A stretch of DNA of 64,000 nucleotides from Thermoplasmata archaeon (GTDB taxonomy: Archaea > Thermoplasmatota > Thermoplasmata > Sysuiplasmatales > Sysuiplasmataceae): assembly GCA_021817225.1 (NCBI GenBank), contig JAKAVR010000002.1, forward strand, positions 17,240 through 81,239, in the 5' to 3' direction. Positions 10,599 to 63,298 of the stretch are shown here, in pieces. Every line of letters starts with the position of its first letter. Within the stretch, counting starts at the first letter, position 1. The position numbers and the translations under genes are program-made. Under the pieces are notes generated by a model that had not been told where the DNA came from, did not search any database, and saw only the letters and a program-made list of their open reading frames with translations.

Positions 10599-12067
<1,469 letters not shown>

Positions 12068-60288: not shown

Positions 60289-61062
60289 TCAGATTTTTCC
60301 TCTAATGGCTCTGCCTGCCTCTACAGACATTTCAATCGACTTCTTTACCTCTTCGAATGTGAAGAAGCCAGATCCTCCCTTCTGCATTGCCCTGAGGTCG
60401 CCGTTTTCATCCGTTGCAACGGTGAGCCTCGCAGAAGATACTTCCTCCTCCTCGAGTGTAGGGTCAACCACCAGGTAGTCGCCTATCTTCACGGTTGTGC
60501 ATGAGATGGGGGTAGACCTCAGTGGCAAATGGAAATCCTCTCCCTTGCCGAAACGCTTGGCTGGAACCATCGTGTTCCTGAGTGCGGCTACTGCGGCTAT
60601 TGAAGAGGCGTCAAACAGGTTGCCATCATAGTCCAGCGCGTACACATCGACGTATAGCACCCAGACTTCTTTCTCGGGAGTGATGCATAGCGCTTCAAGA
60701 TCTATCATCTGGCTTTCCCTGATCCCGCGATCGACGACTCTTGAGAGTTCTATTGCCATGGGAGAAGGCGGCCCGCTCTCGAACTCTTCAAACGCCATGG
60801 GTATCAGTTCAACGTTTGTTGTCAGCACTCCCTTGTTAGGCGTGTCGGCGAAAGGTTCGCCCACGGCCATCTTTATTCCGACGACAACTTCAGTGTTGCC
60901 CAGCTTCATCCTGGCCGAGCCTTCGGCTGTTTCGATTGCACCTTCAATTATTGAAACGGGTCTCAGTTCACCAAAACTCCTGCCGTCGCTTCTCTTTCCC
61001 TTGGCAAGGAGCGTCGTGATATGCCCCTTCTTGACTTCGGACAGTGGACTCCTCTGACTCAT
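60289..61062 (-). CDS. rrp42: exosome complex subunit Rrp42
   Basis: RNase PH-like inactive subunit. The start is probably the M at 61062, directly after the rrp41 stop (the ORF is drawn to 61167). Confidence 0.8.
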
Positions 61063-61835
61063 GCCACATTCCCCCTTGCTTCCTCTTCCTTCCCGCCATT
61101 TTCGCCGGCTGCTATGGAATATTTCCTCCGCAGCGCATCCTGCTGAACGGCGTAAATCTGCGAACAACCCCCCTTGGCGAGCTCTATGGCCCTGTTGAAT
61201 TCGGCCTGAGTAAGGTGGCCGTCCATCTGAAGAAGGAGCACTTCACCCGTCCTCGGGATGTATGCGAGCGGAAGATCCGCATCGCCGAAGTTATCCTCTT
61301 CCTTGTTCAGGTCGAGGACAATAGTATCTGCAACCTTTCCCGCAGCGCAAGCGGGGATCAGGTCCCTCATGGGTATGCCCGCATCGGCTACCGCGACAGA
61401 GGCGGCAGTCAGTCCAGCACACCTCGTGCCCGCATTGGCCTGCAGGACAGCTATGTAGACATCAATGGAAGTCCTTGGGAACTGTTCCAGGAAGATGCTG
61501 TATTCAAGCGCTTCACCCACTATCTTTGAGATTTCCACGGACCTTCTGTCCGGTCCCGGGCGCTTTCGGTCATCCACGGAAAAGGAAAGCATGTTGTAGT
61601 GACACTGGACAATGGCTCGTGTCGGGTCCTGCAGGTGTCTTGGATGACACTCCCTCGGACCGTAAACGGCCGCCAGTATCTTGTTCTTCCCCATTTCCAC
61701 GTAGGCTGAGCCGTCTGCTCTCCTTAGCACACCAGCCTCGATCCTTATCGGGCGCAGCTCGTCCGCATTCCTGCCATCCAGTCTCTTACCGTTCTCGTCT
61801 ATCAGTTTCATGCCCTCAGGCAAATCCATGCTCAT
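61059..61835 (-). CDS. rrp41: exosome complex exonuclease Rrp41
   Basis: RNase PH family; [29 protein letters not shown] is the phosphate-binding region. Confidence 0.85.
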
Positions 61836-61849
61836 TCAATCACCGTAAC

Positions 61850-62548
61850 TTAACCGTGTTTTGATGGAAAGGAACTCTCCAGAAAGTCCCTGATCCTGTC
61901 TGTCAGTCCGTGAGTGTGCGACTCCTCATCTATTATCCTTATCGCCTTGGCTACCTTCAGCACGTTCTCGACTTCCCCGTCAATCCATATTCTGCCGTTC
62001 TTACCTATCAGCACCTTGCAACGGGAGTACTCCTTTATCATCTCGATCATGGAGCCGCTCTTTCCAATGACCCTTGGCACCTTGGCGTACGGGATGTCGA
62101 CTACATGGCCGCCCTTCAGCTTCCTGAGGCTCTGGTCCCTCATTGTCAGCTGCACGTGCTTTGAATCATCCACGGAGAGTATCCTCGCAGTGACATTGTC
62201 ACCCAGCTCAAGGTATTTCGCAGTTGCCCCAAATTCCACCTTCCAGGGTGATTCTGACGCATGAAGAACTCCAGGATAGGGAGAATTGATATCGAACAGC
62301 CAGTTGGATGAAGTCATATCGTTGACAGTGCCGATGACTTCATCGCCTGAAAAAGGAACGTACTTGCCGGAAAGTGGCAGTATATCCACATAATTTCCCT
62401 TTGACACTCGCAGGCCGAGAGTCGAAGAATAGATGCTTCCGGCCTTCTTGTAGGTTCCGAAACCGGGCCTCTTCCCGTCCGTTTCGAGCGGCTGGCCTGG
62501 TATTATGATTTCCCTCGGCGTATCAGCATTCGGGATAGACGTTTGTAT
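61850..62548 (-). CDS. rrp4: exosome RNA-binding subunit Rrp4 (N-terminal domain encoded upstream of the drawn GTG start; no canonical start codon)
   Basis: S1 and KH domains lie in the drawn ORF (61850..62407). The in-frame upstream 47 codons (IQTSIPNADTPREIIIPGQPLETDGKRPGFGTYKKAGSIYSSTLGLR) resemble the Rrp4 N-terminal domain from memory. An in-frame TGA sits at 62549..62551, and there is no ATG, GTG or TTG before 62407. Confidence 0.65.
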   Translation of the reverse strand: MQTSIPNADTPREIIIPGQPLETDGKRPGFGTYKKAGSIYSSTLGLRVSKGNYVDILPLSGKYVPFSGDEVIGTVNDMTSSNWLFDINSPYPGVLHASESPWKVEFGATAKYLELGDNVTARILSVDDSKHVQLTMRDQSLRKLKGGHVVDIPYAKVPRVIGKSGSMIEMIKEYSRCKVLIGKNGRIWIDGEVENVLKVAKAIRIIDEESHTHGLTDRIRDFLESSFPSKHG

Positions 62549-62602
62549 TCACACTCCATTTTTTAGTTTTCGCGGACCAAAACGTTGTTCAAATTACGCA
62601 CT

Positions 62603-63298
62603 CTATTTTAATATTTTGGTTTCCGCCCTTCCCCTGGTCTTGTGACCCAGCCTCTCAAAGAAGTCCGTCTGCATCCCTGCCGGCAGCTCGACGACCCCCA
62701 CCCAGCTGCCGTCATTGAGCCATTCCTCCTTGGTTATATGGCCAAAGGCGAGAATGTCTTCATAGCAGCGTCCATAGTCTTCCCCAACGAGCTTGACAGC
62801 AATTCGCGCACTGTCAAAACGTATTGGTATCAGTGGGCGGAGAGCATCAAGAACGTCCTGTACCTGTGATTCGGCCGACTTCATTGGATCTATCCTGACC
62901 CTTGCCTCCTCCATTGCCGCCTCTATCCTGGACAGGGGGTGTGGGGTCCTGGTCTGTGGATTAATAGCATTCCGTGCAATAATGGCAGCAACCTGCTTCC
63001 TTTTTGTTTCTGCCATCACATGTCTCTGTTCGGTCGTAAGCTGGACCGTACCCCTCTTGACTATTTCGCGTGCAACAGTTGAAACATCAGCGGTTCCGAA
63101 AAACTCCTTCAGTTTCTCGTCAGACTGTTTCGTTCCCTTCCTGGCATCCTTGAATATTTCCTCAACGGCCATATGACTGGCCACGTCGACCTCCTTTCCC
63201 TCTTTCAGGTACTTGACTATCTTGGGGTCGATCAGTATTTCGAAGCTTTCCCCCTTTATCTCAAGCCGCCCAACTATTGCCTCTTCGATATCGACCAT
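62603..63298 (-). CDS. sdo1: ribosome maturation protein SDO1/SBDS
   Basis: 231 aa: FYSH domain at the N-terminus, then central and C-terminal domains. It occupies the conserved superoperon position. Confidence 0.8.
   Translation of the reverse strand: MVDIEEAIVGRLEIKGESFEILIDPKIVKYLKEGKEVDVASHMAVEEIFKDARKGTKQSDEKLKEFFGTADVSTVAREIVKRGTVQLTTEQRHVMAETKRKQVAAIIARNAINPQTRTPHPLSRIEAAMEEARVRIDPMKSAESQVQDVLDALRPLIPIRFDSARIAVKLVGEDYGRCYEDILAFGHITKEEWLNDGSWVGVVELPAGMQTDFFERLGHKTRGRAETKILK

Follow-up and report, generated by a model that had tools for sequence, protein, structure and literature searches.

The question raised by this locus is where translation of rrp4, the gene of an archaeal exosome cap protein, begins. 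The DNA analysed (a 64-kb stretch, hereafter the window) carries on its minus strand an rrp4 frame open for 232 codons, from an ATA (62548..62546) to the stop TAA (61852..61850), with an in-frame TGA (62551..62549) directly 5' of it. The first in-frame ATG, GTG or TTG is a GTG at 62407, and a start there drops the N-terminal domain. An earlier sequence-only reading had drawn the ORF from this GTG as a 185-aa product, had placed the TGA as the stop of the frame and a GGAG (62557..62554) 5 nt before the ATA, and had seen an ATG in another frame only. All of these were confirmed in the sequence; ATGs are found at 62559..62557 and 62529..62527, and a -1 shift would be needed to enter the rrp4 frame from theirs. 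The features of the region are collected in Table 1, in which codons are numbered with the ACG at 62542..62540 as codon 1.

Table 1. Features of the rrp4 region and of the 16S rRNA 3' end in the window
Feature	Position	Strand	Remarks
Proposed full-length rrp4 CDS	61850..62542	-	230 codons from ACG plus stop TAA 61852..61850
Proposed initiation codon ACG	62540..62542	-	Invariant in 8 lineages (20 contigs)
Extended Shine-Dalgarno GGAG-T-GTGA	62549..62557	-	Contains in-frame TGA 62551..62549
16S rRNA 3' end GGATCACCTCCT	10600..10611	-	Anti-Shine-Dalgarno, yardstick for the rrp4 element
Leader codons 2-9 (SIPNADTP)	62516..62539	-	Variable N-terminal tail, low-confidence prediction
Rrp4 N-terminal (ring-anchoring) domain, codons 10-57	62372..62515	-	Pfam ECR1_N_2, pN/pS, pLDDT
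GTG, codon 46 (Val)	62405..62407	-	Only in-frame canonical start; gene callers' start, 185-aa product
S1 domain, codons 61-137	62132..62362	-	Pfam RRP4_S1, RRP40_S1
KH domain, codons 145-191	61970..62110	-	Pfam KH_6, KH_1
Out-of-frame mini-ORF	62503..62559	-	ATG 62559..62557 to TAA 62505..62503; second ATG 62529..62527; not conserved
SBDS-family gene	62603..63298	-	Immediately upstream of rrp4; Pfam SBDS domains recorded for orthologues
rrp41	61059..61835	-	14 nt downstream of rrp4 stop; ordinary GGTGAT-N3-ATG start; orthologues with RNase_PH domains
Intergenic element TAGAGTGCGTAATTTGAACAACGTTTTGGTCC	62574..62605	-	Highly conserved; begins at SBDS stop codon

The N-terminal domain of Rrp4

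Although a run of 47 codons stays open by chance about 10% of the time, the 47 codons upstream of the GTG are genuine Rrp4 sequence and no chance open stretch. The sequence-only reading had called them Rrp4-N-terminal-like, and this was borne out by the NCBIfam Rrp4 equivalog NF003181 (250.8 bits, cut-off 200; profile positions 2-220 of 221), whose match began at 'REIIIPG', by the Pfam model of the Rrp4 N-terminal domain, ECR1_N_2 (residues 12-59), and by the PDB Rrp4 chains 8xie_G and 2ba0_A, whose alignments began at the same residue as the NF003181 match. The product belongs to Rrp4 by the equivalog cut-off, by its N-terminal/S1/KH architecture and by its rrp41/rrp42 operon context. Codons 10-45 of the N-terminal domain are located upstream of the only canonical start.

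The AlphaFold model (pTM 0.68; best PDB matches 2ba0_A and 8xie_G over 214-224 aligned columns) had a mean pLDDT of 86-90 at residues 11-40 and of 80 at residues 41-50, with the first strand formed by residues 11-13, and a pLDDT below 50 at residues 1-7. The leader codons 2-9 showed a pN/pS of 0.79 among relatives and their length never varied. A strain variant (L023) had gained an ATG at codon 8, which could mean that the residues upstream of it are dispensable.

Conservation of the layout in one Thermoplasmata clade

When the orthologous rrp4 loci were aligned, as the sequence-only reading had proposed as a check, the same start-less layout and a conserved ACG column were found in 20 contigs corresponding to eight sequence-distinct lineages of one Thermoplasmata clade, counts that overstate statistical independence given the common ancestry of the lineages. 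The contigs came from about 17 assemblies besides the window (NCBI MAGs, ENA and Logan assemblies, many samples). Members of the clade were found in NCBI, ENA and Logan data only, and scans of the JGI metagenome collection with protein patterns and with the conserved intergenic DNA pattern gave no further lineages. The organisms are uncultured, and 'Ca. Sysuiplasmataceae' was the sole family-level title among their MAGs.

No ATG, GTG or TTG was present 5' of the N-terminal domain in any of the eight ACG lineages (20 contigs), and all relatives had exactly 230 codons counted from the ACG column. Codons 10-45 gave a pN/pS of 0.26 in the rrp4 frame, compared with 2.2 and 1.1 in the two other frames, and they contained no stops or indels in any lineage, even with synonymous sites saturated. 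The first residue of the domain, R10, was encoded variously by AGG, AGA, CGG and CGT, and its retention through switches between the AGR and CGN codon families argues that it is translated. Judged by these substitution patterns, the part of the N-terminal domain that precedes the GTG is translated.

The same data bear on whether the short S1-KH protein, started at the GTG or at an internal ATG, could be the real product and the N-terminal sequence a decaying remnant. Every gene caller did shorten rrp4 in the clade, to products of 155-223 aa (e.g. 185, 179 and 155 aa), against 230 aa at full length. However, the GTG was not conserved even within the species, being GTT in L003 and L004 (98-99% identical) and GTC, GTA or ATA in other relatives, and the sequence upstream of it is under purifying selection in frame. 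Moreover, Rrp4 contacts Rrp41 mostly through its N-terminal domain (PMC11201974), in agreement with the earlier statement that Rrp4 needs this domain to sit on the exosome ring. We therefore regard a short product as highly improbable, and the unconserved GTG together with the in-frame pN/pS refutes the split gene, or short S1-KH norm, that had been considered for this locus.

A frameshift had also been suggested, either programmed (here -1) or caused by an assembly or sequencing indel, that would connect the frame of the ATGs (62559 or 62529) with that of rrp4. A single base added between 62527 and 62510 would indeed give 'MLIRRG(E/K)IIIPG...', a plausible Rrp4 N-terminus. Nevertheless, with an identical layout in all these assemblies and divergent lineages, the anomaly is not confined to one assembly. 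ATGs in the mini-ORF frame occurred only in the species group of the window and were absent in 7 of the 8 lineages; in place of the 5' ATG (62559) the remaining lineages had CTG or other codons, and even the 98%-identical strain L014 lacked this ATG, reading AAACGGAG, with ACG instead. The leader was hypervariable (2 of 24 columns invariant) and offered no conserved slippery site, folding gave no significant structure (z = 0.70), and both R10 and the ACG were conserved in the rrp4 frame. These observations make a joined frame extremely improbable. Readthrough of the upstream stop from a start further 5' was likewise rejected: most lineages had TGA as this stop but one had TAA, and upstream indels of 1, 9 and 10 nt shift the frame.

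In a neighbour-joining tree of SBDS, Rrp4 and Rrp41 the clade had a bootstrap of 100%, and one lineage with an ATG at the start position, L013, was nested inside it as the sister of L008 (97%). This nesting makes one loss of ATG and one reversion more parsimonious than at least four independent losses.

The ACG triplet and its Shine-Dalgarno element

In all eight lineages an ACG was located 9 codons before the conserved R-x-I-I-I-P-G and 11 nt after the GGAG. Its three bases were invariant, whereas none of the 7 spacer columns and only 2 of the 24 in the leader were (2 of 31 flanking columns in total). Of the near-cognate codons between the upstream stop and R10, it was also the only one common to all lineages. 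In L011, L012 and L016 a TAA immediately preceded the ACG, which was there the sole near-cognate between that TAA and R10. The same column was ATG in the nested L013 and Met1 in all outgroup orthologues, with P0014 starting at GTG. Elsewhere in the gene, the same codon was kept in all ACG lineages at only 6 of 184 four-fold columns with a conserved amino acid (1 of 21 Thr columns). An invariant ACG amid freely changing four-fold, leader and spacer columns shows constraint at the nucleotide level.

The 16S rRNA gene of the window ends in GGATCACCTCCT-3', which implies the Shine-Dalgarno consensus AGGAGGTGATCC, and the GGAGnGTGA of rrp4 is complementary to this 3' end. The GGAGnGTG was perfect in each of the 8 ACG lineages and in none of the four ATG relatives. 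The gap between the GTGA and the ACG was 6 nt; in other genes of the window led by GGTGA it was about 1-6 nt, mostly 4-6. Just upstream of the GGAG there were indels that are not multiples of 3, showing that no upstream coding frame is conserved. A search for RNA structure in the 5' region by single-sequence and alignment folding gave z = 0.70 and no covariation. A weak GGAGUGU/ACGUCU hairpin was tried as the cause of the ACG conservation and was discarded, being broken in 3 of the 8 lineages.

As near-cognate initiation would demand, all eight lineages lacked a canonical start between the upstream stop and the conserved domain, and each carried, where orthologues start, a triplet one base away from AUG, with a ribosome-binding signal at a functional distance. 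Together, these comparisons show that rrp4 is an intact gene and suggest that it is most probably initiated at the conserved ACG, giving the full 230-aa Rrp4. The sequence-only reading was thus probably right in proposing a non-AUG start, but not in placing it at ATA or ATC.

A start at one of those codons (ATA 62548..62546, ATC 62536..62534) or at the conserved Ile codons 12-14 (AUH) seems unlikely. The ATA is found 5 nt after the GGAG in the window. Apart from a single GTG in L011, the Ile codons are AUA, AUC or AUU throughout and are conceivable secondary starts, and in E. coli the AUH codons rank among the better near-cognates, reaching 1-2% of AUG (bioRxiv 10.1101/063800). The ATA column, however, was GTA, ACT, ATT, AAG or CAA in relatives, and the ATC column was equally variable; in L011, L012 and L016 the TAA lies between the ATA column and the ACG, which rules the ATA start out. 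Free exchange of synonyms at the Ile codons indicates that selection acts on the residue, not on the triplet. Their distance from the Shine-Dalgarno element is 39-45 nt, and a start at them would cost the protein its invariant R10 as well as some of the first beta-strand.

Rather than by direct entry at the ACG, rrp4 might be translated by termination and reinitiation after a tiny uORF. A GTG-TGA ends 6 nt before the ACG in L001, L003, L008 and L014 as well as in the window (62554..62549), and in L011 a uORF of three codons (GTG-TGT-ATT-TAA) ends immediately before it. The uORF start was not conserved, being GCG in L005 and GAG in L009, L024 and L026, and the conserved letters make better sense as part of the Shine-Dalgarno element, which leaves reinitiation very unlikely; it would in any case still require a start codon, the ACG.

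Another possibility is that C-to-U editing of the mRNA turns the ACG into AUG, or that a specialised initiator reads the ACG, so that initiation would be efficient. This would explain the strict conservation of ACG without a cost in expression, and it is compatible with the sequence. On the other hand, a plain ATG is tolerated, as its restoration in L013 shows, the window has no second gene with a start anomaly of the rrp4 type, and C-to-U editing of mRNA is not known from archaea. We hold this explanation to be scarcely probable. The 64-kb window contained no tRNA genes. Among near-cognate codons of the window preceded by a Shine-Dalgarno element and opening a long ORF with no canonical start nearby, no second case was found, nor did comparison with NCBIfam reveal one among eight further ORFs whose long 5' extensions have no start codon; as far as the 64 kb show, the start-codon rules have thus not changed genome-wide.

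The gene order SBDS-rrp4-rrp41-rrp42 of the window was identical in all related loci. Between SBDS and rrp4, the element TAGAGTGCGTAATTTGAACAACGTTTTGGTCC had 21 of 32 columns invariant across nine lineages, and the spacer 3' of it carried indels of 1, 9 and 10 nt. It is possibly a BRE/TATA-like promoter, a T-tract terminator, or both. Alignment folding gave no covarying structure at 62574..62605, and Rfam gave no match at 62400..62700 even at E<=1, the whole window yielding the 16S rRNA only.

Proposed initiation at ACG and comparable systems

The mechanism that we propose would begin with the unusually long Shine-Dalgarno element (GGAG-n-GTGA, ending 6 nt upstream) positioning the 30S subunit, so that the initiator Met-tRNA could pair with the near-cognate ACG with a C-A mismatch at its second base. 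The resulting protein would begin Met-Ser-Ile-Pro-Asn-Ala-Asp-Thr-Pro-Arg-Glu-Ile-Ile-Ile-Pro-Gly..., carrying the N-terminal, S1 and KH domains, and its Met would probably be removed by methionine aminopeptidase, since the next residue is Ser. The change from ATG to ACG probably occurred once, at the base of the Thermoplasmata clade, and was retained while synonymous sites became saturated, with a reversion to ATG in one nested lineage.

Two published results count against an ACG start: in E. coli reporters ACG initiation reached about 0.1-1% of AUG (bioRxiv 10.1101/063800), and archaeal aIF1 destabilises initiation complexes on non-AUG codons (PMC6237735). The literature searched contained no description of an archaeal ACG start. 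The yield from the ACG is probably reduced, and we infer that the codon is actually used and read as Met, with Rrp4 output lowered relative to Rrp41 and Rrp42, which would perhaps shift the exosome cap toward Csl4. We tentatively raise the further possibility, which we do not favour, that ACG has been selected as the start codon, to set the dosage of Rrp4, and is more than tolerated. Translation of rrp4 would then be tuned to start-codon fidelity (aIF1) or to the state of the cell, adjusting the Rrp4:Csl4 composition of the cap, and with it the RNAs preferred, inside an operon that is itself constitutive, and rrp4 would be the first conserved ACG-initiated core gene described in Archaea. The bipartite 8-nt Shine-Dalgarno element, kept in every ACG lineage and in none of the four ATG relatives, fits such tuning, and the start, if true, would hint at translational control over the stoichiometry of the exosome cap.

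Compared with the archaeal exosome cap protein Rrp4 (NF003181; PDB 2ba0, 8xie, 2je6), the product of the window is likewise a full three-domain protein encoded in the conserved order psmA-SBDS-rrp4-rrp41-rrp42, and its structural alignment with Thermoplasma acidophilum Rrp4 (8xie) shows 43% identity. Only the start codon differs, being ATG in the characterised orthologues and the outgroups examined, and GTG once (P0014). NCBI table 11 does not list ACG as a start and prokaryotic gene finders do not allow it, so that every public genome of the clade annotates Rrp4 without its ring-anchoring domain. Such truncated annotation could be mistaken for a lineage-specific 'cap-less' or altered exosome.

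Plant organelle genes share with rrp4 a genomic ACG at a conserved start position; their ACG start codons are restored to AUG by C-to-U editing, whereas no archaeal machinery for mRNA editing is known. In bacteria, infC is kept on an AUU start, and its product itself polices start-codon fidelity. The weak GTG start of lacI (PMC11445065) is another case of dosage control by a weak start, and rrp4 resembles both in the conservation of a suboptimal start codon over evolutionary time, which suggests that low or tunable translation was selected. The differences are that no feedback on start-codon fidelity like that of infC is evident for Rrp4, and that ACG falls outside the accepted prokaryotic start set and is weaker than its members. 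In an archaeal system, ribosome profiling of Haloferax volcanii found about 30% of putative alternative initiation sites to be near-cognate, but these were set aside as possible false positives, with neither conservation nor sole-start status shown (PMC7261190). For rrp4, it was the comparison of the start-codon column across saturated lineages, an approach that can expose non-canonical starts from sequence alone, that pointed to the ACG.

The other comparable cases are the eukaryotic and viral ACG starts, such as those of AAV VP2 and Sendai virus C'. Here too the codon is one base off AUG, a lower yield is expected, and decoding by initiator Met-tRNA via e/aIF2-type factors is presumed. Those starts, however, depend on scanning and Kozak context and serve alternative isoforms, whereas in rrp4 the ACG would be selected by a Shine-Dalgarno element and would be the sole start of a core housekeeping gene. 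Archaea combine eukaryote-like initiation factors, which permit ACG starts in eukaryotes, with bacterial-like Shine-Dalgarno positioning, and a natural conserved ACG start, if true, would be a ready substrate for studying the near-cognate tolerance of aIF1 and aIF2 under a strong Shine-Dalgarno element.

The rrp4 frame upstream of its first canonical codon

The rrp4 frame is directly preceded by an in-frame TGA, and its only ATG, GTG or TTG before codon 78 is the GTG from which the ORF finder drew its product. On rechecking, the ORF, the TGA, the GTG and the out-of-frame ATGs were found exactly as the sequence-only reading of a start-less rrp4 had described them. The NCBIfam Rrp4 equivalog NF003181 reached 250.8 bits against a cut-off of 200, its match spanning profile positions 2-220 of 221 from 'REIIIPG' onward, and the Pfam model of the Rrp4 N-terminal domain covered residues 12-59. 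The Rrp4 chains of Thermoplasma (8xie_G) and Archaeoglobus (2ba0_A) aligned from the same residue as NF003181, which in 2ba0_A is residue 2, next after Met1. Because the profile and structure-chain alignments begin at one Arg, which is Arg10 when codons are numbered from the ACG proposed below, the start must lie no more than about 11 codons upstream of this residue. Judged from these alignments, the 47 start-less codons upstream of the GTG are genuine Rrp4 sequence; within the family the window protein is itself unremarkable, and what is new is its initiation codon.

Features of the rrp4 region and pN/pS values (pairwise Nei-Gojobori, seven lineages)
Feature	Window position	Strand	Observation
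rrp4 open frame	ATA 62548..62546 to TAA 61852..61850	minus	232 open codons
In-frame TGA	62551..62549	minus	
Proposed start ACG	62542..62540	minus	invariant column in ACG lineages
Arg10	62515..62513	minus	
GTG of drawn ORF	62407	minus	185 aa
ATGs in a different frame	62559 and 62529		closed by TAA 62505..62503
GGAGnGTG columns	62549..62557		
GTG-TGA	62549..62554	minus	minimal 'start-stop'
GGAGUGU/ACGUCU	62537..62557	minus	possible weak hairpin
Conserved element	62574..62605	minus	32 nt from SBDS stop codon
16S rRNA gene	10600..12067	minus	Rfam match
rrp41 stop/rrp42 start	61059..61062	minus	ATGA overlap
rrp4 codons 2-9 (leader)			pN/pS 0.79
rrp4 codons 10-45, in frame			pN/pS 0.26
Same nucleotides, two other frames			pN/pS 2.2 and 1.1
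rrp4 codons 46-230	 		pN/pS 0.13
SBDS	62603..63298		pN/pS 0.09
rrp41	61059..61835		pN/pS 0.08

Synonymous sites were saturated in the pN/pS comparison (pS 0.65-0.72). Arg10 was invariant in the 17 closest sequences and conserved in at least 90% of a wider 30-sequence alignment, and its codon switched between AGG, AGA, CGG and CGT among lineages, showing that it must be read as Arg. These comparisons indicate that the region upstream of the GTG is translated in the rrp4 frame. The window protein and database orthologues were used to build an AlphaFold model (pTM 0.68), which superposed on full-length archaeal Rrp4 structures, with residues 1-7 at pLDDT below 50, residues 11-40 at a mean pLDDT of 86-90 and a first beta-strand at residues 11-13.

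The short S1-KH form, allowed for earlier as the possible norm of this lineage, would have a canonical start, and its GTG was rejected as such: the codon is GTT in the 98-99% identical loci L003 and L004 and GTC, GTA, GTT or ATA in other lineages. The variability of this column explains the differing truncated calls among assemblies. In the Thermoplasma acidophilum exosome structure, 17 of the 29 Rrp41-contacting residues of Rrp4 belong to the N-terminal domain, which dominates complex formation (PMC11201974), so that a form lacking this domain is unlikely as a functional product. With codons 10-45 also constrained in frame, the short form as true product fits the comparative data less well than initiation at the ACG.

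An invariant ACG and its ribosome-binding site

Close relatives (82-99% identical) came back from the protein search as seven clusters at 90% identity; in six the protein had been called truncated (155, 155, 179, 179, 185 and 218 aa), and only P0001, of 241 aa, was full length. Cluster members added more truncated calls and two additional lineages. P0125 is identical to the 185-aa ORF of the window. DNA was fetched for all clusters and their members, as well as for species-representative genomes. One member MAG bears the title 'Candidatus Sysuiplasmataceae archaeon' and the others 'Thermoplasmata archaeon'; the nearest ATG-bearing outgroups include Ca. Sysuiplasma superficiale and a Methanomassiliicoccales MAG. 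The same start layout was present in 20 contigs, from the window and about 17 NCBI, ENA and Logan assemblies, some possibly built on common raw reads, which represent eight lineages distinct by sequence. This recurrence led us to reject a single-assembly artefact, and in practice every Rrp4 of the clade is mis-annotated as N-terminally truncated.

When the loci were aligned from the stop of SBDS into rrp4, the spacer upstream of GGAG contained indels of 1, 9 and 10 nt, implying that no upstream reading frame is common to the lineages. From GGAG on there were no indels, and GGAG (-15 to -12), GTG (-10 to -8), ACG (0 to +2) and one C at +4 were invariant in the eight lineages, with exactly 230 codons from ACG to stop in each. 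When near-cognates between the upstream stop and Arg10 were listed per lineage, the ACG at codon 1 was the sole one in common, and in L011 it was the only one. L013, the one close relative called normally, has ATG in this column (GGAGCGAGTGCGGCA ATG TCA TCT = MSSSTPGNSRDIIIPG), and outgroup DNA has the same geometry but with ATG (e.g. GGAAAGTGA-AGTGTA-ATG in Ca. Sysuiplasma superficiale). Aligned as proteins, the more distant orthologues all have Met1 in this column, except P0014 with Val (GTG). On these comparative grounds the ACG is probably the rrp4 start codon, and RNA editing agrees with them less well.

Non-AUG initiation, one of the options of the sequence-only reading, was thus supported, but not at its ATA or ATC, whose columns are variable, the conserved codon being ACG. 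The ATA column reads GTA, ACT, ATT, AAG or CAA in other lineages, with ATT TAA ACG, a stop immediately ahead of the ACG, in L011, L012 and L016; that of the ATC (codon 3) reads CTC, TCT, GTC, CCC, GCG, TCC or TCA. Initiation at another near-cognate codon therefore matches the data less closely than at ACG. So does an indel or frameshift joining the ATG frame to rrp4, also suggested before: the ATG at 62559 is ACG in L014, a strain whose Rrp4 is 98% identical, and in other lineages it is CTG or missing, and a hypervariable leader cannot harbour a conserved slippery site.

The 3' end of the window's 16S rRNA is GGATCACCTCCT, giving AGGAGGTGATCC as the ideal Shine-Dalgarno (SD) sequence. In the rrp4 leader, GGAG-T-GTGA can pair through eight bases if one base bulges out, and its end is 6 nt upstream of the ACG. 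Where other genes of the window have a clear SD, GGTGA stands about 1-6 nt (mostly 4-6) before ATG, as in rrp41 with GGTGAT-TGA-ATG. A perfect GGAGnGTG was found in 8/8 ACG lineages and 0/4 ATG-bearing relatives (L013 GGAGCGAG, L017 GGAAAGTG, L018 GGAGAATG, L019 GTGA only), suggesting, in a small and phylogenetically structured sample, that SD strength may compensate for a weak start codon.

The minimal start-stop GTG-TGA shares the rrp4 frame and precedes the ACG by 6 nt, and its L011 counterpart is a 3-codon uORF (GTG TGT ATT TAA) ending right at the ACG. Since this GTG is GCG or GAG in four lineages, we read these letters as SD bases, and uORF-dependent reinitiation fits the comparative data less well than the ACG. 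The possible hairpin between the SD and the start region had one pair broken in 3/8 lineages and no covariation. In L023 (171-260; ENA ERZ27237063, k141_599321), from the window's own species, codon 1 is still ACG and codon 8 (window 62521..62519) has changed from ACG to ATG (GAT ATG CCG AGG), which is why P0126 was called as a 223-aa 'MPREIIIPG...'. Either the leader, which is variable, carries a Thr8Met polymorphism here, or the strain has gained a canonical start 27 nt from the SD.

Constraint, polarity and neighbouring features

An ordinary Thr ACG codon is expected to drift at its third base. Among conserved four-fold-degenerate columns of SBDS, rrp4 and rrp41, the same codon was kept in all ACG lineages in 6 of 184 (3.3%), and in 1 of the 21 Thr columns; around the ACG the leader amino acids themselves are unconserved. 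With 2/31 of the local columns invariant, the naive chance of three such bases in a row is about 3x10^-4, only a rough guide in view of shared ancestry. A neighbour-joining tree of concatenated SBDS, Rrp4 and Rrp41 recovered the clade at 100% bootstrap and nested the ATG-bearing L013 within it, as sister to the ACG-bearing L008 (97%). By parsimony, a basal ATG-to-ACG change with one reversion takes two steps, and the alternative at least four independent changes. Reversion to ATG at exactly the ACG codon would be the behaviour expected of a start codon.

For eight window ORFs with long start-less extensions, the family matches all began after a canonical start, and a 64-kb scan for SD-preceded near-cognates that open ORFs of 100 codons or more and lack a canonical start close by returned 62542 only. 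With no second case in the window, the feature is gene-specific, with no visible change of the organism's start-codon rules.

Within the operon, Rrp4 has clearly diverged faster than the genes on either side: identity within the clade is 80-85%, vs 88-93% for SBDS and 90-92% for Rrp41, pN/pS is 0.13-0.26 vs 0.08-0.09, and identity to outgroups is about 64% vs 81-86%. The element at the SBDS stop codon (TAGAGTGCGYAAWTTGAACARYGTTTTGGTCC) is more conserved than adjacent coding sequence, occurs in L001-L027 and keeps part of its sequence even in L019, the Methanomassiliicoccales outgroup (TAGAGTGCCCAATTTGAA). Rfam gave no match for it and no covarying fold was seen; it may serve rrp4-rrp41-rrp42 as a BRE/TATA-like promoter, the upstream genes as a T-tract terminator, or both. 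The 292-aa rrp42 drawn from a TTG (61167) probably begins too far upstream, since in relatives the product counts 257 aa from the ATG at 61062. The complete 16S rRNA gene had no 23S or 5S rRNA (Rfam) and no tRNA gene (ARAGORN) within 64 kb, suggesting unlinked rRNA genes.

Expected yield and known weak starts

ACG is outside the start set of NCBI table 11; eukaryotes, with initiation factors similar to those of archaea, can use it as one of their near-cognate starts. The evidence best supports SD-directed initiation, in which initiator tRNA on the near-cognate ACG would give a 230-aa Rrp4, likely at low yield. In E. coli, ACG gives about 0.1-1% of AUG initiation, with N-terminal Met or occasionally Thr (bioRxiv 10.1101/063800), and archaeal aIF1 disfavours complexes on non-AUG codons (PMC6237735). 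Ribosome profiling of Haloferax volcanii placed about 30% of alternative initiation sites at near-cognates, which its authors set aside (PMC7261190). Our full-text literature search found no described archaeal ACG start. It is plausible that the ACG would make the shared operon yield less Rrp4, and the exosome cap would hence be richer in Csl4. Non-AUG initiation itself is already known, and bacteria keep weak starts for dosage control, as with the AUU of infC. The GTG of lacI is likewise a weak start kept for dosage control (PMC11445065).
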